From an uncultured Actinomycetes bacterium (GTDB lineage Bacteria > Actinomycetota > Thermoleophilia > Solirubrobacterales > Solirubrobacteraceae), in assembly GCA_963821355.1 (NCBI GenBank), contig CAWGDO010000003.1, positions 10,981-74,980 on the forward strand: a stretch of DNA of 64,000 nucleotides, written 5' to 3'. Within the stretch, counting starts at the first letter, position 1; each line of letters starts with the position of its first letter. Below the pieces are notes generated by a model, which did no database searches, had not been told where the DNA came from, and saw nothing but the letters and a program-made list of their open reading frames with translations. This document shows, piece by piece, positions 4,195 through 59,631 of the stretch. The position numbers and the translations under genes were made by a program.

Positions 4195-4281
4195 GGCCTG
4201 CTCCTCTCGTCCGGGTGCCCCTCATCGTCGCCCGCGGCTAAGCGCACGCCATCAGCACTGACGTGTGAATCGCGTGCGGGA

Positions 4282-10546: not shown

Positions 10547-10547
10547 G

Positions 10548-11282: not shown

Positions 11283-11361
11283 GTGACGAGCGAAGGAGAC
11301 GACGTGGAGCTGTCAGCAGGCCCAGGCCACTTCATCAAGAAGCTCTGACGGTCGCGTTTCC

Positions 11362-14163: not shown

Positions 14164-14166
14164 CGC

Positions 14167-22032: not shown

Positions 22033-22347
22033 GAGCTGACACTGCCACGGCGGCGCGCGCGCGACATCCGGCGCGCGCGGCACAGCGACTCCGTGGTTTG
22101 CCGCATTCTGCATGTGGTCGCCTCCGGTTTCGTCCGCCGAGCCGTGACTTGATGCTCGCCGCATGGTCGTCGCGCGTGGAAAGCACGGCACCGCCGCCCT
22201 CGAGCGGCACGCTCGCAAGCTCGACCTCGTCGTCGGCGAGCTGCGCAAGCGCGCGCCGCGCCATCCCGCACCGCAGCTGATCAACCGTGCGATCGAGGGC
22301 CTCGAGGCCGAGCTGGCCGCTGTGCGCCGCCAGCTCGGCCGGCGCTC

Positions 22348-23595
22348 GTGACCTCCGCCTCGCTGCTCGTCCTCGACGACGCCCACCACGTCGGGCTGAC
22401 CGCCGCCGAGGTGGTCGCCAATCGCATCCGCGCGCGCACACGCGCGCGCCTGCTTCTGCCCACAGGCCATACGCCGCGGGGCCTCTACGCCGCGCTGCGC
22501 GGCCATGCCGCCGACGGGTCGCTGCCCAGCGAGCACACGACGGTGCTCGGGCTCGACGAGTACCTCGGGCTGGGCGCCGATGACCCGCGCAGCTTCCGCG
22601 CCGACCTGGACCGCGAGCTGGACGGCATCGCGATCGGCCGCCGCGAGGCGCTCGACGGCTCCGCCGCCGACCCAGAGGCCGAGGCCGCCCGCTACCAGGC
22701 CGTGCTCGACACCGCACCGGTCGATCTCGCCGTCCTCGGCCTCGGACGCGACGCGCACGTCGCGTTCAACGAGCCGGGCGCCCGCCCGGGCGAGGGCGCG
22801 CACCGCGTGGCGCTGCACCCCACGACGATCGCCGCGGCCGCAGCCGAGTTCGGCGGGGCCGAGCACGTTCCCCGCGAAGCGCTGACGGTGGGCCTGCGGA
22901 CGCTGCTCGCGGCGCGCGAGGTCCTGCTCATCGTCACGGGCACCGAGAAGTCCGAGGCGCTGCGCGCGGCGCTCGAAGGGCCGATCGGGCCCGCCGCGCC
23001 AGCCTCGCTGCTGCGCCACCATCCATGCCTGACGGTTGTGTGTGACCGGGCGGCCGCCGGCCGGCTACGCGGCGCCGCGGGACGCGACAGCGATCACGTC
23101 GCAATCGTGCTCGGCCATCGCGAGCCGGGGATCAGCGCGGAGCACCGTATCTCCGCGCACTCGCGTGCCCGGCTCGCGCGGGCGGTGCGGCTGTGCCGGC
23201 GAAGCCCGGTCCGTGCCGTGGTGCTGACCGGCTACACGCTCACGGGCGGCCTCTCGGAGGCCGAGCAGATGCAGCGCGAATGGCCTCTGGCCGACGTCCC
23301 GGTCCTCCTCGAGGTCGCCGGGCGCAACACCGCCGAGAACGCATCGCGGTCGCTGCCGATCGTCCTGGCGCTCGGCGTGGCCGCGCGGGTGAGCGTCGTG
23401 ACCTCGATCTGGCACCTGCGCGCGCCGTATTTCTTCGCGCCGTATCGCGCCTTCGCGCTCGAGGTGCAGCTGTGTCCCGCGCGCCCCCTCCGCGGCTTCG
23501 GCCACCTCCTCGCCGAGGAGGTCGGCCGCCTTGCCGGGATGGCCGGTCAGCGCCGCTCGGCGATGGGCGCCGTGCGGCTGCCGGACGGTTCCTGA
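22348..23595 (+). CDS. Two-domain protein: glucosamine-6-P deaminase/6-phosphogluconolactonase-like N-terminus fused to DUF218 (YdcF/ElyC-like)
   Basis: NagB/Pgl-like GLGRDAHVAFNEPG, then a DUF218 signature (VVLTGYTLTGG...AGRNTAENA). GTG start. Confidence 0.55.
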   Translation: MTSASLLVLDDAHHVGLTAAEVVANRIRARTRARLLLPTGHTPRGLYAALRGHAADGSLPSEHTTVLGLDEYLGLGADDPRSFRADLDRELDGIAIGRREALDGSAADPEAEAARYQAVLDTAPVDLAVLGLGRDAHVAFNEPGARPGEGAHRVALHPTTIAAAAAEFGGAEHVPREALTVGLRTLLAAREVLLIVTGTEKSEALRAALEGPIGPAAPASLLRHHPCLTVVCDRAAAGRLRGAAGRDSDHVAIVLGHREPGISAEHRISAHSRARLARAVRLCRRSPVRAVVLTGYTLTGGLSEAEQMQREWPLADVPVLLEVAGRNTAENASRSLPIVLALGVAARVSVVTSIWHLRAPYFFAPYRAFALEVQLCPARPLRGFGHLLAEEVGRLAGMAGQRRSAMGAVRLPDGS

Positions 23596-24092
23596 CCCTC
23601 GGCGAGGAGCTGCTCGGCGACGCCGCGCGCCCACGCCTCGATGGCGGGCCAGTCGCGCGCGTCGCGCCGTTCGGTGGGCGTGTTCCTGAGCATTGCGCGC
23701 TCGACGAAGTTGCCGGGATCGGCCGGCACGCGGCCGCCGAACATCACGTTCTCGCGTGCGCCGATCTGCGCGGCCAGGCGCTCGGCGAAGGGCGGCATGG
23801 GCGCGGTCGGGTGCTCCTCGGGCGCGCCGAAGGGGCCGCTGCTGAACAGCCAGACCGGCAGCTCCCGCAGGGCGCGCCCGTGGCGACGCGCAAACCTCCG
23901 TGCCTCGGGCCGCCAGCGCTTCGCGTAGACCGCGCTGCCGAGCACGACGGCGTCGCAGCCGGACAGGTCGTCGACCTCGGAGGCCGGCCGCACCTCGACG
24001 GTGCAGCCGGCCCGCCGCATCGCGGCGCCGATGCGCTCGGCGATCTCCTCGGTGGAGGAGTGCTTGGTCGCATAGGCGATCAGGACGGACAT
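23547..24092 (-). CDS. Flavodoxin-like fold protein
   Basis: MSVLIAYATKHSSTEEIAERI...AVVLGSAVY flavodoxin-like start. Directly downstream of gap on the same strand. Confidence 0.6.
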   Translation of the reverse strand: MSVLIAYATKHSSTEEIAERIGAAMRRAGCTVEVRPASEVDDLSGCDAVVLGSAVYAKRWRPEARRFARRHGRALRELPVWLFSSGPFGAPEEHPTAPMPPFAERLAAQIGARENVMFGGRVPADPGNFVERAMLRNTPTERRDARDWPAIEAWARGVAEQLLAEGQEPSGSRTAPIAERR

Positions 24093-30794: not shown

Positions 30795-31094
30795 CGGACG
30801 CCGACCGCCACGCGCGCTGCGCGCGAGGCGCGCAGCGCGCGCATGGTTAGGAGACGACCGTCCCACGGCCGGGCCGCGACGCCATCGGTGCGTTCTGCCG
30901 CAGCCCGACCGTAGTTGTCCGCGCGCTTCGTAGTTCCCATTGACGCAGGCCCCGCGGAGGCCGTCTGCGCCCTTCCTCCATTGGGGATCAGCCGTGCCGC
31001 ACTTGTGGATGTCCACGGATGCCCGCGCGTCGGTCGCGGCCTACGTTAGAAGCGCGCGCATTGCGCATGCTTCGACAAGCAGGAGGTGACGAGA

Positions 31095-31960
31095 ATGTCC
31101 ACCTGGGTGATCATCGCCGTGGTCGGCGTGCTGGCCGTTGTCGTGCTGTGCACGTCGGTGCGGATCCTCAAGCAGTACGAGCGCGGCGTGCAGTTCCGCC
31201 TCGGCCGCCTCAAGGACGGACCGCGCGGTCCGGGCCTCATCTTCATCATCCCCCTGGTCGACCACGTGCGGCGCGTGTCGCTGCGGATCGTGACGATGCC
31301 GATCCAGTCGCAGGGGATCATCACTCGCGACAACGTCAGCGTCGACATCGCCGCGGTCGCCTACTACCGCGTCAAGGACCCCGTGCGCTCGGTCGTCGCG
31401 ATCGAGGACGTGGCCGCCGCGATCGACCAGATCGCCCAGACGACGCTGCGCTCCGTCGTCGGCCAGCACACGCTCGACGAGGCGCTCGCCGAGACCGAGA
31501 CGATCAACCAGCACATCCGCGAGATCCTCGACGTCCAGACCGAGGACTGGGGCGTCGAGGTGACGCTGGTCGAGCTCAAGGACATCCAGCTGCCCGACAG
31601 CATGAAGCGCGCCATGGCCAAGCAGGCCGAGGCCGAGCGCGAGAAGCGGGCCAAGATCATCGCCGCCGAGGGCGAGGCGCTGGCCGCCGGCGAGCTGGCC
31701 GACGCGTCGGACATCATGATGGCCCACCCGCTGGCCCTGCAGCTGCGCAACCTGCAGACGCTGATCGAGATCTCGGTCGAGAAGAACTCGACGATCGTCT
31801 TCCCCGCGCCGCTCATGAGCACCATCCAGGAGCTGGGCGCCTTCCTTCGGCACGAGGGCGAGAGCGCGCAGCCGCTCCGCGGGCCCGCCGCCCGCGGGAT
31901 CGGTCGTCAACGGCGCGGGCGCTCCGCTTCCCGGCGTCGCCGCGAGCTGGGAGCCGGTCG
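31095..31960 (+). CDS. SPFH/Band-7 (stomatin/prohibitin) family protein
   Basis: AGGAGGT Shine-Dalgarno sequence, N-terminal TM helix and SPFH domain ([14 protein letters not shown]...). No in-frame stop precedes the next gene's signal peptide, so the 3' end is uncertain. Confidence 0.7.
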
Positions 31961-32595
31961 GATGACCTTGGTCCGCACCTGGCTGCTCGCCTCGGCGGTC
32001 GGCCTGGCCTTCGCCGCCTCTGCGGGCGCACAACGGGGCGTGTTCGAGACCCGCACCTTCGCGGAGCCGGCCAGGCCCGGCCTCGCGGTGACCGGCGCCC
32101 TCAGCGGCTATCGCGTGACGTCCGTCGGACGCGTGGTCGTCCCCACCGGCTGGCGCAGCCTTGCTGCACCGGCCGGCACGCTTCGCTTCCTGACCGGTCG
32201 GCAACCCGAGCTGCCGCTACACCGTGACCTACACCGTCAAGTCGGTGCTGGCGCCGACCCAGGATGCCTCGTCGTACGTCACGGCGGGCCTGCCGGCGCC
32301 CAGCGCGCGGCACCTGCTCGACAGCGGCGTGCACGGCAACCGCGCCTTTCGCGTCGTGCGCCAGCCCGGGATCGGCGGGCGGGTCCGCCTCGACGCGCTG
32401 TGGGCCGGTGTGCTGACCAAGCGCACGGACATCGCGCCGGCTGGGCAGGTGGCGTGGACCGAGATCCGCGTGACGGCGGTGTCCCGCGCGGGCGACGAAT
32501 GCCACTCGGGCACCTGGCGGCAGGCGCTCGGGCCGACCATCGGCGACTCGCTCGCCGTCGCCCGCACGAGCCTCCGTTTCACGAGGTCGGCCTGA
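31961..32595 (+). CDS. Secreted hypothetical protein (signal peptide); apparent +1 frameshift near 32217
   Basis: [24 protein letters not shown] signal peptide. The body continues in the next frame (..RQPELP|[16 protein letters not shown]..). Same reading frame as stomatin upstream. Confidence 0.4.
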
Positions 32596-32985
32596 GCGAC
32601 GCGCGGCGGCTCACGAGCTGCGGAGAACCACGCGGTGCCCTTTCGGTGGGTCCGCGCGATCAATCGGGTCTTACTGGGTGGCGAGGACGCCGGCGGCGAC
32701 GTGACCACTGGGCCTGGCGAGTGGCACCGCCCGGTGGCGGCCACCTACGCGGCCCATCCTTCGCTCACGGTCGCGGCCCTGTCTTCGATCAGGCGGGTCC
32801 GACTCCCGCACTCGCCACTCAGCTGCGACCACGTCGAGGCCTTCGCGCCGCCGTCCGTGGTCCAGGCCCGCCGCCAACGACGGATTGCGGCTCTTCCGCA
32901 GGCTGAAGGCGCGGTCGACCCGGATGGCGGCCCGTCGTGCGATGCCTAGGCTCGGATCATGTACTCCGAGTCCGAGGTCGCCGAC

Positions 32986-33891
32986 ATGTTCACCACCATC
33001 GTCGTCGGAGTCGACGGGCTCCCGGGAGGTCGCGACGCGCTCGTGCTGGCGCAGCACATCGCGGACCTCGCCGGTGGAGACCTCGTCGCCGTCCACGTGC
33101 ATCCCTACGAGCCGTTCCCGCTGCGCGGCCTGCGCACGGACGTCGAAGCGCTGGCGCACGAGGAGGCGCAGGCGCTGCTCGAAGGCCAGCTCGCCGAGGC
33201 CGGCGTGCCGGCCCGGGCGATCGCGACCCCCGAGACGTCCCCGGGCCGGGGCCTGCACCGGATCGCCGACGGGCTCGATGCCGATCTAATCGTCATTGGC
33301 TCGCCGCATCGCGGCCCGCTCGGCCGCGTCATCGCCGGCGACACCGCGCGCGCCGTCATCCAGGGCGCCACGCGGCCTGTCCTCGTGGCGCGCCAGAGCG
33401 CGGCGACGCCGTTCGCCGGCCAGGTCATCGGCGTCGGCTACGACGGCTCGCCCGAGAGCCGCGTCGCGCTGGCCTGGGCGGGACGCTTCGCGCTCGCCGT
33501 CGGCGCCACCGTCCACGTCCTCTGCGCGGCCGAGCCCCCGCAGGGGTTCTCGCCCAGCATCTCCTACGGCATCAACTGGGTGGCTCTCGCTCCCGAGCGT
33601 CGCGAGTACGCCGAGACGATCGTCGCCGAGGCCGTGGCCGAGCTCGGCAACGGCGCCACCGGCGAGGCGGTCGTCGGCGTGGCACGCGAGGAGCTCGTCA
33701 GGCTCTCCGAGCGCGTGGACCTCCTGGTCCTCGGCTCGCGCGGCTACGGTCCCGTTCGCCGCGCCCTGCTCGGCGGCTCCGCGGACCGGGTCGTCCACGA
33801 AGCGGCCTGCCCGGTGATCGTCGTCCCGCGCGGCGCCTGCGAGGACCATGCGGCCGAGCACAGAGCGGCGGACGAGGTCACGGCCGGTTGA
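32986..33891 (+). CDS. Universal stress protein, tandem UspA domains
   Basis: MFTTIVVGVDGLPGGRDAL...GSRGYGPVRRALLGGSADRVVHEAACPVIVV. Confidence 0.8.
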   Translation: MFTTIVVGVDGLPGGRDALVLAQHIADLAGGDLVAVHVHPYEPFPLRGLRTDVEALAHEEAQALLEGQLAEAGVPARAIATPETSPGRGLHRIADGLDADLIVIGSPHRGPLGRVIAGDTARAVIQGATRPVLVARQSAATPFAGQVIGVGYDGSPESRVALAWAGRFALAVGATVHVLCAAEPPQGFSPSISYGINWVALAPERREYAETIVAEAVAELGNGATGEAVVGVAREELVRLSERVDLLVLGSRGYGPVRRALLGGSADRVVHEAACPVIVVPRGACEDHAAEHRAADEVTAG

Positions 33892-34481: not shown

Positions 34482-34970
34482 TCAGCGCCGCGAAGCGCTG
34501 AGCTCGGAGGCGAGCTCGGCGACGGCCCGCTCGACGGCGGGGCTCAGGCGCTCGCCGGCCCTGAAGCTCGCGCCCTCGACCGCATAAACGTCGAGCTGAT
34601 CCGGGAGGCGCCCCAGCGCCCGCGCCAGCTCGATGGCGTCCGAGACTCCGAACGCGTGCGTCGACGAGCGCAGGGCGCGCACCGGCAAGGCGTCGGCCCC
34701 GGCGTCGAAACGCCGGATGGTGCCCGGCGCCGCCCCCGACTCGGCGGCGTCGACGACGACGACGTGCTCGGCCCCGGACCACGCGTCCATCAGCGCCGTG
34801 GCATCTCCCTCGACCTCGCGCACGTCGACCCCGGTGGGCGCCAGCGCGCGCACGCGCCGCGCGACGGCGAGGCCGGCGGCGTCGTCGCCGCGCCAGCCAT
34901 TGCCGACGCCGATGAGGATCACTCGCGGTCGATCTCCAGGCGCAGGAAGTGCGTCGCGCACGAGATGCAC
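34482..34970 (-). CDS. Hydrogenase maturation endopeptidase (HycI/HoxW family)
   Basis: [18 protein letters not shown] and HxFG motifs of the hydrogenase C-terminal-processing protease. Start uncertain because it overlaps the large-subunit 3' end. Confidence 0.65.
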
Positions 34971-36208
34971 GGGTCGTAGCTACGCACCGCCTGCTCGCAG
35001 CGCAGGCGCAGCTCGTCGTCGTCGAGATCGACGTGGCGCTGGACGAACCCGTGCAGGCTCTGCTCGATGCGGCCCTGGTTCTGCGAGGTCGGCGGGACGA
35101 TGCGGGCATCGACGATGGTGCCCTCGGCGTCGATCTCGTAGCGATGCCACAGCATCCCGCGCGGCGCCTCGGTCCAGCCGAACCCGACGCCAGCGCGCGG
35201 CACGACCTCGGCGGCCGGCGGATCGGGGGGCTCGTAAGCATCGAGCAGGCGCAGCGCCTCGTCGAGCGCGTAGAGGATCTCCACCGCGCGGACGACGATG
35301 CTGCGGAACGGGTTGCGGCACACGGCCTCCAGCCCTGCCGCGTCGGCCGCCTCGCGCGCACCGGGTGACAGGCGGTCGCGGTTCAGGGCGTAGCGCGCGA
35401 GCGGGCCGACGAGATAGCGCGTGCCGTCGAGCAGGCGCGAGTGCAGCGCCGTGGAGTGCGGCACCTGCTCTTCGACGACGTACTCGTCGTAGTCCGCGGG
35501 CGCGAGGTCCAGGCCCGTGCTGGACACCAGCCGGCCGGACTCGATGGCGTAGACGTCGGGGTCGCGCAGCGCGAGGAAGACGAAGTCCTCCTCGAAGTCC
35601 GGGAACGGCAGCCCGGCCGTCCACGCCACCGCCTCGCGCGCGAACTCGCGCGCGCGCTCGAGCTGCTCAACGACCGGCGCCAGCTCGGCACGCGTCGGCG
35701 CGCGGTAGAAGCCCCCGACGCGGACGTTGATCGGGTGGATCTCGCGCCCCCCGATCACGCGCATGAGCGCGTTGCCGGCTTTCTTGAGCGCCAGCGCCGA
35801 TTCCACGATCCCGGGGTGGTCGCCGGCCATCTCGAAGGCGTGCGAGTAGCCGAGGAAATCCGGCGCGTGCAGCATGAAGACATGCAGCGCGTGGCTCTCG
35901 ACCCACTCGCCGCAGTAGAGCATCCGACGCAGGGCGCCGACCTGCTCGGGGACCTCGACGCCGCAGACGTCCTCCATCGCCGCGATCGAGCTCATCTGGT
36001 AGGCGACCGGGCAGATGCCGCAGATGCGGGCGGTGATGTCGGGGACCTCGTTGAAGCGCCTCCCGCGCAGGAACGCCTCGAAGAAGCGCGGCGGCTCGTA
36101 GATGCGCAGCTTGACGTCCTGCACCTGGCCGTCGCGCACGCGGACCTCCATGGCGCCCTCGCCTTCCACGCGGGCGAGCACCTCGGTGAGGATCTCGCGC
36201 TCAGCCAC
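34919..36208 (-). CDS. hydA: [NiFe]-hydrogenase large subunit, group-3b (sulfhydrogenase alpha)-like
   Basis: N-terminal [10 protein letters not shown] and C-terminal DPCISCATH Ni-Fe ligand motifs. GTG start whose junction with the delta stop reads GTGGCTGA. Confidence 0.85.
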
Positions 36209-36974
36209 GGCGCGCCTCGCTCTCCGCGCGGAACTGCGGCGCGCCCGCGTAGAACGTGCGGTAGAGCCGCACGACGTCACGCTCGGGCAGACCGTGCCTG
36301 GTGAGCCAGCTGCCGAGCGAGCCCGGGTTCGGCTGCTCCATCGGCCCGAAGCACCCGTAGCAGCCTCGGTGGTAGCTGGGGCACAGCGCGCCGCAGCCGG
36401 CGTGCGTGACCGGGCCCATGCACGCCGTCCCGTGGGCGACCATCACGCAGACATTGCCGCGGCGTTTGCATTCCACGCACACGCTGTACGCGCCGATCTG
36501 CGGCTTGCGCTCGTTGAGGTAGGCGCTGATCACCTCGAGCAGCTGGCCCTTGTCGGGCGGGCAGCCGTTGAGCTCGAAGTCGACCGCGACGTGTTCGGAC
36601 GCCGGAGTGGAGTACGCGAGCGTCGAGATGTACTGCGGGCTCGCGTAGACGACCGAGACGAAGTCCTCCACGTCGGCGAAGTTGCGCAGCGCCTGGATGC
36701 CGCCCGCGGTGGCGCACGCGCCGATGCAGACCAGGCGACGGGAGCGCGCGCGGATCTCGCGGATGCGCTCGGCCTCCTCGGAGGTCGTGATCGAGCCCTC
36801 GACGATCGACAGGTCGTACTCGCCCTCGGCGCGCTCGAGCCCGGCCTCGGTGAAGTAGGCGATGTCGATCTCGCCCGCAAGGGCGATGAGCTCGTCCTCG
36901 CAATCCAGCAGCGAAAGCTGGCAGCCGTCGCACGAGGAGAACTTCCAGACTGCGAGGCTGCGTCGCTCGCTCAT
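36201..36974 (-). CDS. hydD: [NiFe]-hydrogenase small subunit (group-3b delta)
   Basis: [23 protein letters not shown] proximal-cluster cysteines and a NuoB-like fold. ATGA overlap with the gamma stop. Confidence 0.8.
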
Positions 36975-37789
36975 AGCTCGGGCACCCGCATGAGCGGCTC
37001 GACGATGTCGCGTCGCAGGACCGGCCCGTCCTTGCACATGAAGAGCGGACCGAGCTGGCAATGCCCACAGTGTCCCGTGGCACAGGTCATGCTGCGCTCG
37101 AGCGAGAGCCAGATGCGGTCGTCGGTCAAGCCCGCGTCCTGCAGCGCAACAGCCGCGAAGCGCATCATCACCTCGGGGCCGCACATCATCGCCACTGCGC
37201 TGCCCGGGTCAAAGACGGCGCGCGGGATGAGCCGCGTGACGACGCCAACGCGCCCGCGCCAGTCGCTGTCGGCGACGTCGACGGTCACGTCGACATCGGC
37301 GTCGAACCGCGCCCGCCAGCCTTCGAGCTCCTCCACGTAGAGCAGCTCGGCCGGGGAGCGCCCGCCGTACAGAATCGACACGTCCCCGAAGCGCTCGCGG
37401 TTGGCAAGAAGCTCATGGATGACCGGGCGCAGCGGTGCGAGGCCGATGCCGCCGGCGACCACGACGACATCACGGCCCTCGGCCTCGCGCACGGGCCACG
37501 CCGTCCCGAACGGGCCGCGAACGCCGAGCACCTCGCCCGGCTTTGCGGCGCAGATCGCCTCGGTCACCGCGCCGACGGCGCGCACCGTGTGCACGACCGC
37601 GCCGTCGCCGCCGATGCTGCTGATCGAGATCGGCGCCTCGCCCACGCCGAACGCGTAGAGCATCGCGAACTGCCCAGGAGAGAACGGCTTGCCGGGCGGC
37701 GCGCCCGCGGGCTCGAGGCGCAGCGTCCAGGTGTCCCCGGTCTCGCGCTGCTTGTCAGCAACACGGTAGGCCGTGGGCAGCTCAGCCAC
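36971..37789 (-). CDS. hydG: Hydrogenase gamma subunit (FAD/NAD(P)-binding, 2Fe-2S, oxidoreductase)
   Basis: FNR-like fold ([14 protein letters not shown]) and a C-terminal [12 protein letters not shown]...C iron-sulfur motif. GTG start overlapping the upstream stop as GTGGCTGA. Confidence 0.8.
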
Positions 37790-38249
37790 CGCCCGCCCTT
37801 CCGTACATGTCGAGGAGCCGCAGCCGGGTGTCCTGGAGACGCTCGACGAAGACGCCCGACAGCAGCTTGAGCATGTCGTAACCCAGGGCCGGGTCGGCCT
37901 CGCACTTGCCGCGCAGGCACGCACCGTCGAGCGAGATGGCGTAGGTCGTCCCCACGGAGCGCGCGTCGAAGGCCGTGCGGTACGGCGGCACGAGCCACGA
38001 CCAGCCGAGTAGCTCGCCGTCGTGCAGCGTCTGCAGCACCACCGCTCCGCGCCCCGGGACCTCGGTCTCCAGCGCGACCGCGCCCTCGCGGATGACGTAG
38101 AACGCGTTGGCCGGCTCGCCCTCGCGCATGATCCGCTCGCCGGGCTGGAAGATGCAGTTGCGTGCACAGCCCGCGACCGTGTCGCGGTGGTCGGGCGCCA
38201 GCGCTTGCAGCGCCGGGACCTCGCTCAGCAGCTCCTCAATCGTCCGCAT
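37782..38249 (-). CDS. Stand-alone cyclic-nucleotide-binding (CAP effector) domain protein embedded in the hydrogenase operon
   Basis: 155 aa. ...[28 protein letters not shown]...[12 protein letters not shown]...RTAFDARSV... is the cNMP-binding beta-roll pattern. No HTH or other output domain. Overlaps hydB 3' and hydG 5'. Confidence 0.75.
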
Positions 38250-39375
38250 GGCCGCCCTCCCGCAGATCGGTGGCGCGGATGGCCGCGGTCTCCTCGGTGA
38301 TGTCGATCGCGACCGGGCACCAGGTGATGCAGCGGCCGCAGCCCACGCACCCCGAGGTGCCGAACTGGTCGATCCAGGTCGACAGCTTGTGGGTCATCCA
38401 CTGCCGGTAGCGCGAGCGCCCGGTTCGGCGCACGCTGCCGCCGTGCACGTAGGAGTGCTCGAGCGTGAAGCACGAGTCCCAGAGGCGTGCGTGCTCGGTC
38501 TCGCCGCCCGCGAGGTCGGTGGTGTCCTCGACCGTGCTGCAGAAGCAGGTCGGGCACACCATCGTGCAGTTGCCGCAGCTCAGGCAGCGGTCGGCGACCT
38601 CGTCCCAGCGCGGGTGGTCCAGGTTGCCCTGCAGCAGGTCGCGGATGTCGGTGACGTCGAGCGTCCGGCCCATCGAGGCCGCGGCCCGCGCGGCCGCCTC
38701 GTCGGGTGCGCGCTCCTCGTCGCCCTCCGCCGCGCGATGCTCAATCGCGGCGAGGACTTCGGCGCCGCGCTCGCTCCCGACCTCCACGACGAAGCGGTGC
38801 CCGTCGTCGTCGAGGAGCTCGGTCAGCGCCAGGTCGAAGCCGCCGGTCACGCGCGGCCCGGTGTCCATCGAGACGCAGAAGCAGGTCCCGCCGGCGCGCC
38901 CGCAGTTGACGGCTACGAAGAACGCGTCGCGCCGACGCGCCTCGTAGTCGGGGTCGGCGTAGCGGTCGCCGATGAAGACGCGGTCCTGGATCGTGACGGC
39001 GTGCAGGTCGCACGAGCGCACGCCGAGGAAGGCGTAGCGCGGCGGCGGCTCGGGAGCCTGCACGTCGAGCCCTCCGTCGAGCCCGCGCCGCGCGCGCCAG
39101 ATGCTGAGCTGGGGGGGGAAGAGGAAGCGCTTGAGCGAGTCGTGGCCGACGGTATGCGCGAAGAGCGCTCCGTCGCCGGTGCGCTGAAGGCGGAAGCTGC
39201 CGCCCTCCTGGACGTCGACCCAGCCGCCGGGAAGCTCGTCGGCGCTGTGCACCTCGTCGTAGACCAGCGACTGCGAGCGGACCGTCGGTCCGATGACCGT
39301 GTAGCCGCGCTGCCAGAGCGCGTCCAGCAGGCCGTCGAGCTCAGCTCGCTCGATGATCGCGGGGGCGGCGTTCAT
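38236..39375 (-). CDS. hydB: Hydrogenase beta subunit (4Fe-4S, HydB/sulfhydrogenase beta-like)
   Basis: Cys clusters [16 protein letters not shown] and [15 protein letters not shown] start at 39375. Confidence 0.8.
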
Positions 39376-39487
39376 CGGAGTGCGTACGCTACACCCGCCG
39401 CGCTGCACGGTGGTCCGTGTTTTTCCGTGCCCCCTCGTGGTCCACCCCCGATGGCGATCGGCGCCGACGGCATTAGCTTGCCGTGCC

Positions 39488-40435
39488 ATGGCCGATTCGA
39501 TCGATCCCCCGCTCTTCGAGCGCATCGTCGTCGGCGTCGACGGCGAACGGGGAGGCCGCGACGCGCTCGCCCTCGCAGCGCTGCTACAGCGCGCGGGCGG
39601 CGGAGAGCTCATCGCCGTCCACGTCCACGCTCCCGCGCACACCGTCGACCTGTCGCACCCTGGGCGCGCGGAGGCGGCGCTCGCCGCGGAGCAGTTCGAG
39701 CTGCTCGAGCGCGAGCTCGCCGCGGCGGGCCTGCAGGCGCACGCCACCGTCATGACCGAGAACTCGCCGGCGCGCGCGCTGCACACGGCCGCCGAGCGCC
39801 ACGCCGCGCAGCTCATCGTCGTCGGGGCCTGCCACCTCACCGGTGCCGAGCGCGTCGTGGCCGGCGACGACGCGACGGGGACCCTGCACGGCGCACCATG
39901 CGCCGTCGCGGTCGCCCCGCGTGGCTTCGCCTGCTCCGGCGGCGAGCTGCGGCTCGTCGGCGTCGGCGTCGACGACTCGCCCGAGGCAAGCGCGGCCCTC
40001 GAGCTCGCGCGCCGCCTCGCCCGGCGAGTCGGCGCCGTCATCCGTGCGACGACCGTCGTCCACCTGGAGCACCCGTTCGGGTCGTTCACTGCGTGGGAGC
40101 CGGCGTGGCCGGTCGACGTGCCCGACGCGCGGGACACGGGCCAGCGGCTCCTCGACCGCCTTCTGGCCGATCCCGAGCACAACGCGACCGGCGAAGTCGC
40201 GGTCGGCACGACGTGGGAGCAGCTCGCCTCGCGCAGTGGCGACCTCGACCTCCTCGTCCTCGGCGCGCGCAACCACAGCCCGCTGCGACGCCTCGTGCTG
40301 GGCAGCACCTCGACGAAGCTCGTGCGCCACATCCCCTGTCCGCTGCTCGTGCTCCCGCGAACCGCCGACGCCCGCCGCGACCAGGCCGCGACCGGCGCGA
40401 TCGCCGCTCGCGAGGCGCACGTCGCGCGACGGTGA
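39488..40435 (+). CDS. Universal stress protein, tandem UspA domains
   Basis: MADSIDPPLFERIVVGVDGERGGRDAL...GARNHSPLRRLVLGSTSTKLVRHIPCPLLVL. Confidence 0.8.
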   Translation: MADSIDPPLFERIVVGVDGERGGRDALALAALLQRAGGGELIAVHVHAPAHTVDLSHPGRAEAALAAEQFELLERELAAAGLQAHATVMTENSPARALHTAAERHAAQLIVVGACHLTGAERVVAGDDATGTLHGAPCAVAVAPRGFACSGGELRLVGVGVDDSPEASAALELARRLARRVGAVIRATTVVHLEHPFGSFTAWEPAWPVDVPDARDTGQRLLDRLLADPEHNATGEVAVGTTWEQLASRSGDLDLLVLGARNHSPLRRLVLGSTSTKLVRHIPCPLLVLPRTADARRDQAATGAIAAREAHVARR

Positions 40436-40650: not shown

Positions 40651-41550
40651 TCACCCTGACGAGGCGATGAGCGCCTCGAGCGGCGCCTGCACACCGCGCG
40701 GCAAGACGATGACCGGGCAGTGCGCCTCCGCCACCACCCGCCGCGAGACGCCGCCCAGCAGGACGGCGCGCACGGGCCCATAGCCGCGCGACCCGCACAC
40801 CAGCAGATCGAGATTCTCCGAAACCCTGATGAGCGACTGCGCCGGATCCTCCAGGAACGCGTCGACCTGCACGGGCACGTCGTCCTCGAGCGCACCGACC
40901 GCGGTGCGCGCCGCGGCCTCGGCCCGCACTCGATGCTCGCCCTCAACCGCGTCGAAGCCCTTGTGCTGCTCGGTCTCGGCGTACCAGCCCGTGCGGACCT
41001 TGGCCACGGTGAGCACCCGCAGCGTCGCTTCAGCGCGGCGCGCCAGCGCGAACGCACCGCGGAGCGCCTCGCGCCCTTCCTCGCTGTCGACGTAGGCAAC
41101 GCCGATCGTGCGCAGTCCCCCGCCGGCCTGCCAGCCGTGCGGCACAACCGCGATGGGACACGGCGCGCCATGCATCAACCGCTCGGCGGTGGAGCCGGGC
41201 AGCACGCGGCCGACGGCACCACGGTGCGTCGAGCCGACGACGAGCAGCCCGGCATCCTCGGCCTCCGCTGCCTCGTGCAGAGCGCGGGCGGCGCTCGTGC
41301 TGGCCAGGTCGCGGCACTGCGCCGCGATGCCCTGTGCGTGCAACTCGCCGCGGACCTCGTCGAGCGTCTCGCCGACGTCCGCGACGAGCTCCTCAGCCAT
41401 CTGCCCGGCGATGAGCTCGTCATCGCCGGCGTCGTGGACCGAAGCGATGACGAGCTCGGCACCCGTGAAGCGGGCCGCCGCGACGCCGAAGTGGACCGGA
41501 GCGCGGTCGTGGGTGTGCGGGTCGTAGCCGATGAGGATGGGCTTGCTCAT
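40651..41550 (-). CDS. Universal stress protein, tandem UspA domains
   Basis: MSKPILIGYDPHTHDRAPV...GSRGYGPVRAVLLGGVSRRVVAEAHCPVIVL. Start overlaps the ACP stop (TGATG). Confidence 0.8.
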   Translation of the reverse strand: MSKPILIGYDPHTHDRAPVHFGVAAARFTGAELVIASVHDAGDDELIAGQMAEELVADVGETLDEVRGELHAQGIAAQCRDLASTSAARALHEAAEAEDAGLLVVGSTHRGAVGRVLPGSTAERLMHGAPCPIAVVPHGWQAGGGLRTIGVAYVDSEEGREALRGAFALARRAEATLRVLTVAKVRTGWYAETEQHKGFDAVEGEHRVRAEAAARTAVGALEDDVPVQVDAFLEDPAQSLIRVSENLDLLVCGSRGYGPVRAVLLGGVSRRVVAEAHCPVIVLPRGVQAPLEALIASSG

Positions 41551-41765
41551 CAGGCTGTCGGGGCGCCGGAAACTGTGCGCGCGTCGAGGTAGCGCGGGAT
41601 CGCGGCCATCGTGGTCAGCTCGCCGTAGTCCTGCTCGGGGATGTTGATGCCGGTCGCCTCGTTGAGGGCGATGACGATGTTCAAGATGTCCATGGAGTCG
41701 AGCTCGAGATCCTCGCGCAGCAGAGCACCGTTGTCGAGCGTCGCACGATCGATGTCGGGCGCCAC
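41550..41765 (-). CDS. Acyl-carrier-protein-like carrier protein (71 aa)
   Basis: ...LREDLELDSMDILNIVIALNEATGINIPEQDYGELTTMAAIPRYL. The DSMD phosphopantetheine-attachment context and length match the ACP/PCP fold. Confidence 0.6.
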   Translation of the reverse strand: MAPDIDRATLDNGALLREDLELDSMDILNIVIALNEATGINIPEQDYGELTTMAAIPRYLDARTVSGAPTA

Positions 41766-45868: not shown

Positions 45869-46306
45869 ATGCCCGGAACCCTCATTCGCTGGGATCCCTT
45901 CGCCGAGCTGCCGGAGTTCCGCGGCTGGTTCGACCGGCTGCTGGACGACTTCGGGACTGCCCGTGCGCGCGAGTGGACGCCGGCCGTGGACGTGGTCCGC
46001 GACAACGGCAACCTCATCCTGCGCGCGGACGTGCCGGGGATCGAGCCCGAGGAGATCAGGATCGAGATCCGCGAGGGCTATCTGACGTTATCCGGCGAGC
46101 ACGAGGAGACCACGGAGGAAACGGAGAAGCAGTACGTGCGCCGCGAACGGCGCTATGGCAGCTTCTCCCGGAGCGTCCCGCTGCCCGAGGGCGTCGAGGC
46201 CAAGAAGATCAAGGCCAAGACGCACGACGGCGTGCTCGAGGTGACGATCCCGCTACCGAAGCAGGTGGCGGTGGAGCCGATCACGATCACGCCGACCGTC
46301 GAGTAG
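45869..46306 (+). CDS. Hsp20/alpha-crystallin small heat-shock protein (HspX/Acr-like)
   Basis: GAAGGGAGG Shine-Dalgarno sequence 6 nt upstream. ACD domain with DV(R/K)..L.L.A.LPGV...I.I and an IxI-like C-terminus. Confidence 0.85.
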   Translation: MPGTLIRWDPFAELPEFRGWFDRLLDDFGTARAREWTPAVDVVRDNGNLILRADVPGIEPEEIRIEIREGYLTLSGEHEETTEETEKQYVRRERRYGSFSRSVPLPEGVEAKKIKAKTHDGVLEVTIPLPKQVAVEPITITPTVE

Positions 46307-46325
46307 CCCGCTTCCAGGTCAGGCC

Positions 46326-46359
46326 GATGGGCGGCGTCCATTGCCGGTCGCCGCCCATC
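46326..46359. terminator. GC-rich hairpin: 11-bp perfect inverted repeat GATGGGCGGCG-N12-CGCCGCCCATC between hsp20 and acg
   Basis: Read directly from sequence, 20 nt after the hsp20 stop. No U-tract follows, which is common in high-GC genomes. Could be a terminator, an attenuator or a protein-binding site. Confidence 0.3.
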
Positions 46360-46451
46360 CGGCTGCAGGGGCCGCCCACCGTACTTTCTGCGGTCGCTGG
46401 ACGCGGCCCTCTGCCGATGATCGCCTGACCCGCATCGGTCACGGTCGTCGC

Positions 46452-47444
46452 ATGAGCAAGATCACCGCGCGCGAGGCGCGACACCTGGCGCCGGAGGCGC
46501 TCGACACGATTCTGCGCGCCGCTGTCCTCGCGCCCTCCACGCACAACACGCAGCCCTGGACATTCGCCCTCGAGCCCGGCGTCGTCGACCTGCGCGCGGA
46601 CCGCACGCGCGCGCTGCCCGTCAACGATCCGGAGGACCGCGAGCTGACCATCAGCTGCGGTGCCGCGCTGTTCAACCTGCGCGTGGCGGCGTGCCACGCC
46701 GGCGCCGCGCCTGCGATCGAGCTGCTGCCAGATCCGGGCGACCCGGACCTGCTGGCCACCGTCGTGCTGCACGGCGGCGGCCGGCCTCCCGCGGACGTCG
46801 AGCGCCTGAACGCGGCGATCGCACGGCGCCGCACCCACCGCGACGGCTTCGCCGACCTCGACCTACCGCCGTGCCTGGGCAACGAGCTGCGAGGCATCGG
46901 CCATGCCGAGGGCGCCTGGCTGGAGCTCGTGGACGTGGACACGCTCGACGACCTGGCCGATCTCATCGCCGAGGCCGACCGCATGCAATGGGCCAACCGC
47001 CATTGGCGCCGCGAGCTCGCCGCGTGGATGCATCCGCGTCGCGCCAACGACGGCCTCGCCATGCCCGACCTCGTCGCGCCGCTGGCGCGCGCGACGGTCG
47101 CGACGCTGGACGTCGGTATGCCGACCGCCGCCCGCGACCGCGATCGCGCGCGGGAGGCGCCGGCGATCGTCGTCCTCGACACCCACGGCGACCGCCCGCG
47201 CGACTGGCTCATCACCGGCATGGCGCTCGAACACGCCCTTCTGCACGCGGCGTCACAAGGCGTCCAGGCCTCCTATCTCAACCAACCGATCCAGGTCGCC
47301 GAGCTGCGGATGCGAGTGGCCTCGCTGCTCGAACGTCCGTGCTTCCCGCAGGTGGTCATGCAACTCGGGCATCCGGCACATCCGGCCGGCCCGGCCCGGC
47401 GCCGCCCGCTGGCCGACGTGATCGAGTCCGCCGAGGGCCCCTGA
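46452..47444 (+). CDS. acg: Acg-family nitroreductase-like protein (tandem nitroreductase folds)
   Basis: LAPSTHNTQPW (NfnB-like FMN-site motif) and a 330-aa two-lobed architecture like Mtb Acg/Rv2032. Confidence 0.8.
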   Translation: MSKITAREARHLAPEALDTILRAAVLAPSTHNTQPWTFALEPGVVDLRADRTRALPVNDPEDRELTISCGAALFNLRVAACHAGAAPAIELLPDPGDPDLLATVVLHGGGRPPADVERLNAAIARRRTHRDGFADLDLPPCLGNELRGIGHAEGAWLELVDVDTLDDLADLIAEADRMQWANRHWRRELAAWMHPRRANDGLAMPDLVAPLARATVATLDVGMPTAARDRDRAREAPAIVVLDTHGDRPRDWLITGMALEHALLHAASQGVQASYLNQPIQVAELRMRVASLLERPCFPQVVMQLGHPAHPAGPARRRPLADVIESAEGP

Positions 47445-51361: not shown

Positions 51362-52009
51362 CTAGTCGTCTTCGGTCCAGGTCAGCTCCGACCGCACGGT
51401 GACGACGCCCGGCACCTTGGCGACGAGCTTCGGCAGGATGTCGGCCTCGGTGCGCCGGCGGACGCTGCCCGCGAGCGTCGTCTCGCCGTTACGGACCTGC
51501 ACGTCGATCGTGCCGTTCTCGAGCCCGAGCGCCTCGTGCAGGGAGACCTGCTCGCTGATCTCGCGGGCGATCTCCTCGTCGGTGCGCGCGAACGCGCGCA
51601 CGAGGTCCGCGCGGGTGACGATCCCGACGAGCCGCCCCTGATGGACCACCGGAAGGCGGTTGACACCGTGCTCGAGCATGATCTGCGCGGCTGAGGGGAT
51701 CGTCCAGAACGGCTCGATCGTGATCGCGGGCGATGTCATCGCCTCGCCGGCGGTCCGGGCGGCGGCCTTGGCTGCCGCCTCGGGATCGCGACGCGCGACC
51801 AACCGCGCCAGCGGGCCCGGCTCCTCGGGCTCCGGGCGCTCCTTGGCCAGGACGTCGGCCTCGGAGACCACTCCGACGACCTCGCCGTCGTCGCCGACGA
51901 CCGGCAGGCCGGAGATGCCACGCGCGACGAGCGCGCGCGCGACGTCCTTCAGCGATGCCCCAGGCGCGACGGTGGTGACGTCGCGCGTCATGACCTCTTG
52001 CACTCTCAT
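51362..52009 (-). CDS. CBS-pair + BON-domain protein (hypoxic-response-protein-like)
   Basis: Two CBS motifs (MTRDVTTV..., ...GRLVGIVTRADL) followed by a BON-like C-terminus. Relates to Mtb Hrp1/Rv2626c. Confidence 0.75.
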   Translation of the reverse strand: MRVQEVMTRDVTTVAPGASLKDVARALVARGISGLPVVGDDGEVVGVVSEADVLAKERPEPEEPGPLARLVARRDPEAAAKAAARTAGEAMTSPAITIEPFWTIPSAAQIMLEHGVNRLPVVHQGRLVGIVTRADLVRAFARTDEEIAREISEQVSLHEALGLENGTIDVQVRNGETTLAGSVRRRTEADILPKLVAKVPGVVTVRSELTWTEDD

Positions 52010-52021
52010 GCGCCGACCTTG

Positions 52022-52888
52022 TCAATCATTCGGCGACATGCCATCCGGCGTCACCACTGCCCCGGGTCGGGAGTTCCCACGGATCTTCGCGCCGGCTCCG
52101 CGCGCAACGATTATCACCGGGCACGCCGCTGTCCGGATCAGGCGACCCGACGTGGCGCCCGCCAGCACCGCGTGCAGCGGTCCGTAGCCGCGCGAGCCGG
52201 TGACGAGCAGATCGAGCGAGGACGAGGCGCGCGCGAGCTCGTCGACCGGCTCGCCGCTGCGCACCAGCGGCCGAGCCTGCACGGCGGGGTCGAGCCGCGC
52301 GACGACGCGCGACAGGTCATCGGCGGCGCCGCTTTCGCCGGGCGGCTCGACGACGCGAATGACGTCCAGCCGGGCGCCGAGCCGGCGGGCGACGTCCTCG
52401 GCCGTCGCGAGCGCTCGGTGCGCCTCCGCCGAGCCGTCGTAGGCGCAGCCCACCGCCGCGAAGGGCACGTCCCCGCGCTCGCCGTATCCGCGTGGCGCGA
52501 TCGCAACCGGACACGGCGCGCTGTGAAGCAGGTGCTCGCCCGTGCTCCCGGGCAGGATCCGGCGCAGCGCGCAGGCGTGGCTCGAGCCGACCACGATAAG
52601 CGCCGCGCGCTCCTCGGTCGCGACCTCCTGGAGCCCCCAAGCCGGATGAGCGGCCGCGACGGCGCGGGTCACGGTTCCAGGCGAGCCGGAAAGACGGGCG
52701 AGGGTCGCCTCGGCGTCTGCTCGCAATGCCCGCGGGTAGGCCGCGCCACCCTCGCCTGCGTAGACTGGATCGCCGGGGTAGACGCACACGAGCAGCAGCC
52801 TGGCCGAGGGCTCGGCGAGGCCCCGTGCGAGCGCAAGCGCGTCGACGGAACGCTCGGAATCCTCGACGCCTACGACGACCGTTTCCAT
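52022..52888 (-). CDS. Universal stress protein, tandem UspA domains
   Basis: METVVVGVEDSERSVDALALARGL...GSRGYGPLHAVLAGATSGRLIRTAACPVIIV. Confidence 0.8.
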   Translation of the reverse strand: METVVVGVEDSERSVDALALARGLAEPSARLLLVCVYPGDPVYAGEGGAAYPRALRADAEATLARLSGSPGTVTRAVAAAHPAWGLQEVATEERAALIVVGSSHACALRRILPGSTGEHLLHSAPCPVAIAPRGYGERGDVPFAAVGCAYDGSAEAHRALATAEDVARRLGARLDVIRVVEPPGESGAADDLSRVVARLDPAVQARPLVRSGEPVDELARASSSLDLLVTGSRGYGPLHAVLAGATSGRLIRTAACPVIIVARGAGAKIRGNSRPGAVVTPDGMSPND

Positions 52889-53072
52889 CGCGCTCCTCCT
52901 CATCAGCGACCTTAGAGCGACGCGCCGGGCAGCGCCACCGTATTGGACCGCCACGCACCGGCGCGCCCGCAGTGCATGGGTACTTCTCCGCACGGCCCTG
53001 CGTGCAAGGGCGGATGCCGGCCGCGCGACGGAGCGCAAAGCTCGCGGTGAACTTCAAATCCGGGAGGTCGTC

Positions 53073-53525
53073 ATGACCACGAGGATCCAGCCCTACCAGG
53101 GCAGCTACCTGACACCGAGCTTCGAGACAGCCACCGTCGCCGACGCGATGCGCACCGGGGTGATGAGCTGCCCGCCCGACGTGGCGGCGAGCGTCGTCGC
53201 TCGGATGATGGCGACCTACCACATCCATTCCGTCGTCGTCGAGGGCGTTTACCAGGACCCCATCCATGGCGAGCAGCTGAAATGGGGCGTCGTCTCCGAC
53301 ATGGATCTGCTGCGCGCGGCACGCGCGGGCATCGAGGAGCTGACGGCAGGAGAGATCGCCATCACCGAGGCCGTCACCGTCGAGCCCACGCGTGCGCTCG
53401 ACGAGGCAGCGCGCCTGATGGACGAGCACGAAACCGCGCACCTGATCGTCGTCGACCGTGGGCGGCCCGTGGGGATCCTCTCCACGCTGGACGTCGCCGG
53501 CGTGCTGGCGTGGGGCCGCACGTGA
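53073..53525 (+). CDS. CBS-domain pair protein
   Basis: Two CBS motifs (...HSVVVEG..., ...GRPVGILSTLDV). Confidence 0.75.
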   Translation: MTTRIQPYQGSYLTPSFETATVADAMRTGVMSCPPDVAASVVARMMATYHIHSVVVEGVYQDPIHGEQLKWGVVSDMDLLRAARAGIEELTAGEIAITEAVTVEPTRALDEAARLMDEHETAHLIVVDRGRPVGILSTLDVAGVLAWGRT

Positions 53526-53541
53526 GGAGGTGACGCATCAC

Positions 53542-53970
53542 ATGCCGACGACACATCCACGTATCCTCGACCGCAGCGTCCAGAAGACCAACATCTGGCT
53601 GAGGGACCTCTGTGACGAGCTCGAGTCCGGCGACCGTCAGTACGCCTACCGCGTCCTGCGCGCCTTCCTGCACGCGTTGCGCGATCGCATCCCGGTCGAC
53701 GAGTCCGCGCAGCTGGCCGCGCAGCTGCCGCTGATCGTCCGCGGCGTCTACTACGACGGCTGGGTGCCCGCCCACACGCCGCAGACCTACCACGATCTGC
53801 GCACCTTCCTCGACCGCGTCGCCGCCGAGGCGAACCTCGCGGGCGACACGGAGGCGCTGTTCGCGGCGAGCGCAGCGGCGCGCGTGCTGCGCGCCCACGT
53901 GTCCGGTGGGGAGGTCGACGACGTCGTGAGCGTGCTGCCGCCACCCGTGCGCGAGATCTTCGCCGGTTAG
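53542..53970 (+). CDS. DUF2267-family protein
   Basis: GGAGG Shine-Dalgarno sequence 12 nt upstream. ...FLHALRDRIPVDESAQLAAQLP... matches the DUF2267 helical-repeat pattern. Confidence 0.6.
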   Translation: MPTTHPRILDRSVQKTNIWLRDLCDELESGDRQYAYRVLRAFLHALRDRIPVDESAQLAAQLPLIVRGVYYDGWVPAHTPQTYHDLRTFLDRVAAEANLAGDTEALFAASAAARVLRAHVSGGEVDDVVSVLPPPVREIFAG

Positions 53971-53993
53971 GCGCGCGGCGTTAGGGTGCGGCC

Positions 53994-54413
53994 GTGCCGT
54001 CGCTCCTGCAGCGCTTCCGGCGCATCGTCGCACCCCCGGGTCGTCCCGGCGAGGCCGTTGGCGTGCCCGCGTCCGGCACCGAGCTGGAGGGCGAGCTCGA
54101 ACCGGTGCTCGAGCGCCTCGACGACGTCGACGCCGAGGCATCCGAGATCGAGGCGCAGGCCACCGCCGAGGCCGAGCGCAGGCGTGAGGAGGCCGCTCGC
54201 AAGGCAGAGGCGATCCTTGCGGAGGCGCGGGTCGCGGCGGAGGCCGAGCGCGCCCGGGCCGCAGGCGAGCTGCGGACCGCGGCAGAGCACGATGCCGCCG
54301 CCGAACGCGAGGGCGCCGCGCGTGAGGTCGAGCGGATCGAGGCCGTCCGCGAGGAGCGCCTGGCACAGCTGGTCGGCGAGGTGGTCGCATGCGTGCTGCA
54401 CAGCGGGCACTGA
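53994..54413 (+). CDS. A/V-type ATPase peripheral-stalk subunit (G/H-like, coiled-coil)
   Basis: Highly charged Ala/Glu/Arg coiled-coil (AEAERRREEAARKAEAILAEARVAAEAERARAAGEL). First gene of the atp cluster. Start uncertain. Confidence 0.45.
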   Translation: MPSLLQRFRRIVAPPGRPGEAVGVPASGTELEGELEPVLERLDDVDAEASEIEAQATAEAERRREEAARKAEAILAEARVAAEAERARAAGELRTAAEHDAAAEREGAAREVERIEAVREERLAQLVGEVVACVLHSGH

Positions 54414-55336: not shown

Positions 55337-55355
55337 CCACCGCTCCCCAACACCG

Positions 55356-57359
<2,004 letters not shown>

Positions 57360-57363
<4 letters not shown>

Positions 57364-59583: not shown

Positions 59584-59631
59584 GGGCCCCGGTCGAGCAC
59601 ACGCGCGTGGACTCCGTCCGCGGCCCGCTGC

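Follow-up and report, generated by a model that had tools for sequence, protein, structure and literature searches.

Why does an operon for a cytoplasmic, NAD(P)-linked [NiFe] hydrogenase carry, between the genes of two of its subunits, a gene for a protein made of a cyclic-nucleotide-binding (CNB) domain alone? The question is raised by contig CAWGDO010000003.1 of an uncultured Actinomycetes bacterium of the family Solirubrobacteraceae (assembly GCA_963821355.1), of which a stretch of 64,000 nucleotides (nt) with 73% G+C was analysed; this whole stretch is called the window below, all coordinates refer to it, and all its hydrogenase genes lie on the minus strand. In the window, a gene for a CNB-only protein of 155 amino acids (aa; 37782-38249, PF00027) is embedded between hydB and hydG of a group-3b hydrogenase operon. 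An initial annotation of the locus, made from the sequence alone, proposed that the product is either a cAMP- or cGMP-sensing regulatory subunit or a chaperone-like factor, and knew of no description of the arrangement. The evidence presented here points instead, with moderate confidence, to a fifth, non-catalytic accessory subunit that is probably dimeric, sits at HydB/HydG, carries a repurposed nucleotide cassette and affects how the enzyme is activated, in which direction it runs or how it oligomerises. The arrangement itself is real and, almost certainly, serves a function.

Operon organisation and class of the hydrogenase

The genes are read directly on the minus strand in the order hydB-CNB-hydG-hydD-hydA, as initially annotated. 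The hydB gene (hyhB, 38236-39375) encodes a 379-aa 4Fe-4S beta subunit resembling AsrA and ShyB (Pfam Fer4_22, E 3.2e-32; NCBIfam ShyB, 2.4e-44, and AsrA, 2.1e-34), while hydG (hyhG, 36971-37789), which starts with GTG, encodes a 272-aa gamma subunit for FAD/NAD(P) and 2Fe-2S (NAD_binding_1 and DHODB_Fe-S_bind; AsrB, 1.5e-56; HydG, 5.4e-44). They are followed by the gene for the 257-aa small subunit, hydD (hyhS, 36201-36974; Oxidored_q6, E 2.4e-24), and by hydA (hyhL, 34919-36208), again with a GTG start, for the 429-aa [NiFe] large subunit (NiFeSe_Hases; ShyA, 5.9e-87). The 3' end of hydA is overlapped by a gene for a HycI-type hydrogenase maturation protease (34482-34970; PF01750; TIGR00072, E 9.4e-33).

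The assignment to group 3b made at the outset is borne out by the family matches of HydA, HydB, HydG and HydD, as a sulfhydrogenase-alpha-like large subunit stands in one operon with an AsrA-like beta, an AsrB-like gamma and an Oxidored_q6 small subunit. The closest PDB relatives of HydA are sulfhydrogenase alpha subunits (9nez, 9e15 and 5yxy; E 1e-73 to 3e-74, with 3.4e-74 for 9nez), and its closest solved relatives are the group-3b enzymes of Pyrococcus furiosus and Thermococcus kodakarensis. Its best NCBIfam matches are ShyA (292 bits) and HydA (263 bits), both under the archaeal equivalog cut-offs, and its translation shows the N- and C-terminal CxxC Ni-Fe ligand motifs (RICGICP and DPCISCATH). 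The operon shares its four hydrogenase subunits, their order and domain content, and similar protein sizes with P. furiosus SHI (hydBGDA) and Mycobacterium smegmatis Hyd3/Hyh (MSMEG_3931-3928), and in all three a HycI-type protease gene comes next after the four-subunit set. However, nothing lies between hydB and hydG in the P. furiosus and M. smegmatis operons (PMC13332983), whereas the window has the CNB gene there.

Each gene overlap described in the initial annotation is present. The hydB stop (TGA, 38238-38236) and the CNB start (ATG, 38249-38247) overlap by 14 nt (38236-38249), and the ATG is preceded, at a distance of 5 nt, by a Shine-Dalgarno-like GGGAGGG (38255-38261). The TGA that ends the CNB gene (37784-37782) is part of the octamer GTGGCTGA (37782-37789), the GTG of which is the hydG start, backed by orthologue alignments that begin at residues 1-5. 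Further along, hydG and hydD overlap by ATGA (36971-36974), as read from the sequence, and a second GTGGCTGA (36201-36208), containing the GTG of hydA, forms the junction of the hydD stop and the hydA start. That the two GTGGCTGA junctions are identical is not significant in itself, since the window holds four copies of the octamer against 1.98 expected, and four or more were reached in 18 of 100 shuffles.

A single CNB domain without an output domain

Pfam detected in the 155-aa protein PF00027 alone (residues 34-116, E 6.6e-11, over the gathering score). The AlphaFold2 (AF2) model (pLDDT 83.4) consists of N-terminal helices, a beta-roll and a long C-terminal helix, with nothing further. The top Foldseek matches of this model are the effector domains of GlxR, M. 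tuberculosis CRP and DNR (TM 0.72-0.74; 0.74 for GlxR and M. tuberculosis CRP), and its fold matches cAMP-bound CRP and PKA-R domains. As in the CRP/FNR effector domains, the N-terminal helices are combined with an eight-stranded beta-roll and a long C-helix. Unlike CRP/FNR transcription factors, the protein has no helix-turn-helix DNA-binding domain, as it ends at residue 155 directly after the C-helix and has no second Pfam domain, and its cassette Glu and Arg align out of register. The description of the protein as a lone CAP effector domain with no output domain is thus upheld by Pfam, AF2 and Foldseek alike.

The C-helix spans residues 120-151 (37797-37892; DSSP on the AF2 model). Within the CRP/FNR family, this helix mediates dimerisation, and a dimerisation role is presumed for it here by analogy with that family and with the HoxI dimer (HoxI2) discussed below. 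At E ≤ 1e-3, 3574 homologues of the protein are known, and nearly all of the 120 best ones listed are about 155 aa long; a length of 150-158 aa is conserved in the family, and judged by these relatives the reading frame is clearly a real gene. Among NCBIfam models, the protein (residues 2-123) comes closest to NF041163, the CNB insertion of family 2B encapsulin shell proteins, in a match (E 6.6e-07) that falls far short of the cut-off.

A conserved position in many bacterial lineages

In a scan of one genome per species, relatives of the protein were found to be encoded in at least 596 genomes. The best 80 of these species loci were surveyed by tblastn with all six window proteins, and in 79 of them hydB, CNB, hydG, hydD, hydA and usually the protease gene are colinear, so that the CNB gene occupies the same position in related genomes as in the window. 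The sole exception is an orphan in a Streptosporangiaceae genome (L077). The 80 loci span about ten phyla, with representatives of Thermoleophilia, Acidobacteriota, Zixibacteria, Alphaproteobacteria, Burkholderiales, Ignavibacteria, Bacteroidota, KSB1, Sumerlaeota and Clostridia. Among 1.84 billion cluster representatives searched, 105 clusters match the protein at E ≤ 1e-30, a number that rises to 1930 at E ≤ 1e-10.

In RefSeq, this gene cluster is annotated for Rhodococcus and Burkholderiaceae, with plasmids of Paraburkholderia and Rhodococcus carrying it. The fraction of group-3b loci with a CNB gene was sampled by searching from the large subunit, HyhL, in 15 plasmid-borne loci; all have a CNB gene of the family, embedded in 11 and nearby in four. 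In four Streptomyces plasmid records, hydB is directly followed by hydG, and a CNB-only paralogue (~36% identical) lies 9-18 kb off. Here, the CNB gene seems to have moved elsewhere rather than to have been lost. In Streptomyces sp. NBC_01340 (L085), for example, the hydrogenase genes occupy 10066-14775 and a CNB-only paralogue of the GWSWL type is found on the other strand (23444-23860), while another Streptomyces paralogue (L002, 5980-6417) adjoins Usp, carbonic anhydrase and G6PD genes. Considering the species survey against the exceptions in Streptomyces and M. smegmatis, the arrangement is widespread, yet not universal, in bacterial group-3b operons.

The supposed novelty of the arrangement is not supported, as it is present in hundreds of public genomes, is annotated in RefSeq, has been mentioned in print and has a CNB-only counterpart, HoxI, that is already known. 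A comparative genomics study of R. equi 103S lists the CNB gene (WP_013415449.1) in the Hyd-3b cluster without analysing it (PMC13332983), and a paper on methanotrophs labels the corresponding group-3b gene "HoxI", likewise without analysis (PMC12319191). A CNB classification paper of 2007 does not mention hydrogenases. Literature and structure searches found no biochemistry or structure of a bacterial group-3b enzyme with a CNB protein, and literature searches for a structural or cryo-EM paper on a bacterial group-3b enzyme or SHI returned nothing relevant. The window locus is one more case of an arrangement that is abundant in public annotation, mentioned in the literature and matched by a described analogue; the family is under-studied, not new.

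Coupling of the CNB gene to hydB and hydG

In about 50 of the 80 loci, from different phyla, hydB and the CNB gene share exactly 14 nt; in most of the others the overlap is 4, 8 or 17 nt, the gene starts for these counts having been picked by a heuristic. In addition, the CNB domain occurs in natural fusions with both neighbouring subunits, in frame and with the domains intact. A CNB::HydG fusion of 468 aa is represented by a cluster of 11 proteins; 10 of these are full-length, differ in sequence and stem from independent samples of JGI and ENA. In one contig of 96 kb (L086), the fused gene is placed between hydB and the small-subunit gene. A HydB::CNB fusion of 542 aa is present in two independent assemblies, with a second, diverged free CNB gene after it. 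The overlaps, the fusions and the shared divergence described below strongly suggest that the CNB protein would contact the C-terminus of HydB and the N-terminus of HydG.

The HydB::CNB fusion and the free CNB gene behind it, which belong to one lineage, lie at 2924-5110 (L087) and 1739-3925 (L088), and the free CNB protein has the cassette GYCWLIPPYQC. Such a pair could represent a CNB heterodimer, and the fused and free copies fit a CNB dimer, as do the CRP-type C-helix and the HoxI2 stoichiometry. Tandem CNB-CNB proteins (P0124 and P0126) were considered as covalent dimers in hydrogenase operons and rejected, as their contigs have no hydrogenase genes.

The CNB gene has also diverged together with the hydrogenase. 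Across 61 complete loci and the window, the mean pairwise p-distance is 0.451 for CNB, 0.445 for HydG and 0.416 for HydB, and correlations of the CNB distance matrix with the matrices of the four subunits lie at r = 0.63-0.78, a range that overlaps the 0.68-0.85 obtained between one subunit and another. The CNB gene is thus co-inherited with the hydrogenase as a module. These results qualify the idea that translational coupling implies stoichiometric synthesis with the enzyme: position, conserved 14-nt overlap, fusions and co-divergence fit a component made together with it, whereas gene overlap alone is weak evidence because the genome has 73% G+C, and more weight falls on the fusions and on how well the overlap is conserved.

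A remodelled phosphate-binding cassette

In canonical CNB domains, the cassette Glu (E72 in the F-G-E-L of CRP) contacts the ribose 2'-OH, and the cassette Arg (R82 in the R82-S83-A84 of CRP) binds the cyclic phosphate. The cassette of the window protein (residues 78-98; 37956-38018) is modified, and this modification is the hallmark of the family. Its register was determined by MAFFT and by three independent profile-to-sequence alignments against E. coli CRP, M. tuberculosis CRP and HoxI, and rests on these alignments rather than on a structure; the reference sequences of the two CRPs and of FNR were entered by hand, while HoxI was translated from pHG1. Conservation was counted in 82 hydrogenase-linked orthologues and in 119 diverse cluster representatives. 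In all alignments, G82-W83-S84-W85-L86 lies opposite the canonical G-E-L-x-[LIF], so that Trp83 occupies the position of the cassette Glu; a Trp is found there in 73 of the 82 orthologues and 96 of the 119 representatives, the latter also keeping S84 (106), W85 (111) and P89 (115). Arg91, which only 63 of the 82 orthologues keep, aligns one residue N-terminal of the cassette Arg. The next residue, Ser or Thr in the canonical motif, is Trp in 50 of the 82, and R91-T92-A93 is confined to the clade of the window. Conservation within the family peaks in G-W-S-W-L-x-P-P-[YH]-R-W-x-F-D-A-R-A, and further conserved positions are Cys28, Asn31, Arg54, Asp108, Cys111, Arg113, Lys115, Asp119, Gly123, Arg137, Asp147 and Tyr149. 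The AF2 model, proposed earlier as a check on both parts of the domain, confirmed the beta-roll, yet it has low confidence at residues 81-94 and predicts no cassette helix.

A classical cAMP/cGMP receptor is unlikely because the cassette is remodelled to G-W-S-W-L-x-P-P-Y-R-W. A true cAMP- or cGMP-sensing regulatory subunit, which would make hydrogenase activity dependent on a cyclic-nucleotide messenger, would agree with the genuine CNB fold, with the best sequence and structure matches, which bind cAMP (PKA-R, GlxR and M. tuberculosis CRP), with the conserved beta-roll glycines G44, G56, G78 and G82, and with the Y-R91-T-A of the window's clade, which resembles the canonical R-[ST]-A. Cyclic-nucleotide binding is still conceivable, as the Arg could be brought back into place if the loop shifted by a single residue. 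However, Trp at the Glu position and an Arg91 that aligns off register and is only partly conserved, often with a Trp next to it, are largely the loss of phosphate-binding residues that the initial annotation had itself named as telling against its proposal, and the uncertain, helix-free cassette of the model points the same way. Moreover, the analogue HoxI is tied to NADPH, not cAMP, and no cyclase gene was found near the operon among the ~40 annotated open reading frames (ORFs) of the window, not every ORF having been scanned. We therefore regard cyclic-nucleotide sensing as unlikely, although it fares best among the rival explanations. The conserved aromatic and basic character of the cassette rather argues for a functional site, which may serve another ligand or a protein interface.

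CNB folds with substituted cassette residues are known from the nucleoside-binding PKA regulatory subunits of kinetoplastids, which are among the structural matches (6h4g, 6hyq and 6flo), but no specific sequence relationship of the window protein to such remodelled domains was found. An equivalence of the conserved cysteines with the [4Fe-4S] ligands of FNR was rejected, as FNR C122 falls on Ile105 and C29 precedes helix A (judged by eye and by profile).

HoxI as the closest described analogue

HoxI of Cupriavidus necator H16 is a non-essential, dissociable subunit that is present as a dimer in the soluble hydrogenase HoxHYFUI2 (PMC3189943), and it is thought to bind NADP(H) (PMC12319191). 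Its gene on pHG1 (L004, 24836-25339) encodes a CNB-only protein of 167 aa. Like the window protein, HoxI is small (~17-18 kDa), consists of a CNB domain without any output domain and has its gene in an operon for a cytoplasmic NAD(P)-linked [NiFe] hydrogenase. In HoxI, His stands in place of the canonical cassette Arg, which is probably missing from the window protein as well. HoxI-type subunits co-purify with their enzyme as a dimer and confer activation by NADPH; for the window family, the fusions and the pair of fused and free CNB in L087 and L088 support such behaviour only indirectly. In contrast, HoxI keeps the cassette Glu (G-E-L-G-F), where the window family has G-W-S-W-L; hoxI lies at the operon end after the protease gene hoxW, while the window gene lies between diaphorase subunits; and the enzyme of HoxI belongs to group 3d (HoxFU, complex-I-like), that of the window to group 3b (AsrAB-like HydBG). 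The two proteins share 21% identity, a hidden Markov model of the 3b family scores M. tuberculosis CRP (52.4 bits) above HoxI (43.6 bits), and pHG1 is not among the tblastn matches at E ≤ 1e-3. Because of this low identity, the higher score of M. tuberculosis CRP and the differences in cassette and gene position, HoxI is considered an analogue or very distant relative, not an orthologue.

Proposed role in the enzyme

As an accessory subunit, the CNB protein would be made from the same mRNA as HydB, with its translation coupled to that of HydB, and would bind the diaphorase half of the hydrogenase next to the HydB C-terminus and the HydG N-terminus, most likely in a dimeric form that the long C-helix holds together. 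The remodelled cassette would then most likely be either a site for another nucleotide-like ligand, as proposed for NAD(P)H and HoxI, or a protein-protein interface, and the protein may modulate the activation, direction or oligomeric state of the hydrogenase. A bolder version of this proposal can be offered only tentatively. Here, the CNB protein would be a built-in sensor of the NAD(P)H/NAD(P)+ ratio, of a nucleoside or of redox state, acting through the Trp-rich cassette and possibly Cys28/Cys111, and would gate electron flow through HydB/HydG, between H2 evolution and uptake or between on and off states, in hypoxia, thereby defining a five-subunit class of bacterial group-3b enzymes.

Several observations weigh against a fifth subunit. 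As purified from P. furiosus and M. smegmatis, group-3b enzymes are reported to consist of four subunits (PMC13332983). In M. smegmatis, the consecutive tags MSMEG_3931-3927 are beta, gamma, delta, alpha and protease, with no embedded CNB gene, and since the embedded gene is missing there and in Streptomyces sp. NBC_01340, a group-3b enzyme can work without the CNB protein. CNB domains of this type are also found elsewhere, as tandem CNB-CNB proteins, a CNB-CBS-BON protein and Streptomyces orphans, so the domain is not exclusive to hydrogenases. The Rhodococcus orthologue (41% identical) lacks the otherwise near-invariant Cys28 and Cys111. Finally, the Arg91-Thr-Ala of the window's clade could yet bind a cyclic phosphate.

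The paralogues away from hydrogenase genes, namely those by Usp and G6PD genes in Streptomyces, the Streptosporangiaceae orphan, the tandem proteins and the CBS-BON fusions, could also be taken to mean that the CNB protein is a free soluble regulator or ligand buffer that is merely co-expressed with the enzyme, for example binding a transcription factor or sequestering a metabolite in hypoxia or dormancy. The window indeed resembles a stress or dormancy island, and HoxI readily dissociates from its own enzyme. However, a free protein would hardly account for the in-frame fusions to HydG and HydB in independent lineages or for a place between hydB and hydG that is strictly kept from phylum to phylum, which makes this alternative improbable. 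Least probable of all, a transient assembly or maturation factor for the iron-sulfur and flavin module of HydB/HydG, absent from the mature enzyme, would suit the location between the genes of two cofactor-rich subunits, the conservation of Cys28, Cys111 and Cys116 in the main clade and the characterised four-subunit enzymes without a CNB protein, but the covalent HydG and HydB fusions argue for stable association, the Rhodococcus orthologue is without these cysteines, and CNB domains are not known to act as chaperones.

Genomic neighbourhood

Within the window, the hydrogenase operon is part of an apparent dormancy- or hypoxia-type gene island (11287-61000). The island includes four tandem-Usp genes and genes for CBS-BON, SPFH/slipin and OsmC proteins, a WS/DGAT triacylglycerol synthase, a P-type cation ATPase, a nitroreductase-like protein, a LonB/LonC-like protease and GAPDH; examples lie at 20560-23064, 11287-14163, 46245-47444, 32959-33891, 39353-40435, 40651-41592, 51362-53053 and 31050-32906. 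This content resembles the mycobacterial DosR regulon, and the neighbourhoods of both the window and the M. smegmatis genes suggest a hypoxia or stress setting. A DosR-type operator (GGGACNNNNGTCCC, at most one mismatch) was rejected, with four matches against 5.4 expected and none upstream of hydB. Usp genes also flank the same five-gene cluster on Paraburkholderia pOLGA1 (L001, 1450-4196, where a slipin gene is present too) and on Rhodococcus pDK1 (L003, 8-898 and 11257-12135), and the association with stress genes appears to travel with the hydrogenase cluster across unrelated phyla. In one 390-aa protein (P0260), a CNB domain of the family is fused to a CBS pair and a BON domain, and the window has a separate CBS-BON gene (51362-52021) 13 kb off the operon. 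This co-occurrence of CNB with CBS-BON hints at a recurring functional neighbourhood.

At the downstream end of the operon, the last ~52 nt of hydA (34919-34970) also belong to the protease ORF, which starts with GTG at 34970; a similar overlap, of ~46 nt, is seen in many orthologous loci. A scan of 34-40 kb for promoters and terminators gave a single promoter-like site on the operon strand, a candidate inside hydG (37212-37185). Of terminator-like sites, it gave three overlapping ones on the opposite strand (39395-39420) and none on that of the operon. Rfam matched no RNA element in the window at gathering thresholds. A V/A-type ATPase operon (53400-61000) includes the genes for subunits I (55206-56729), A (58071-59432) and B (59646-60959), and one ORF of 1728 aa (4378-9564) combines an MMPL transporter region with an AMP-binding (acyl-adenylate-forming) domain and represents either one gene or two adjacent in-frame genes.

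Implications for group-3b hydrogenases

Group-3b hydrogenases are widespread in soil bacteria, where roles in fermentative H2 production and in redox balance under hypoxia are ascribed to them, and they have been modelled as four-subunit HyhBGSL enzymes after Pyrococcus and M. smegmatis. Because a four-subunit enzyme is the standard picture of Hyh, the CNB family is under-appreciated, although the Hyh operon of many bacterial lineages has this conserved fifth gene, in some fused to HydG or HydB. The locus presents no new kind of system, rather an overlooked and testable detail of a known one. If the CNB protein is a true subunit, biochemistry, structures and heterologous expression of bacterial Hyh for NAD(P)H regeneration should include it, and it may account for lineage differences in activation or regulation. 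The family is in any case a conserved example of a CNB fold with a repurposed nucleotide cassette and, should the bolder sensor proposal be true, it would show, in many phyla, a CNB domain at work as the allosteric subunit in a redox enzyme.

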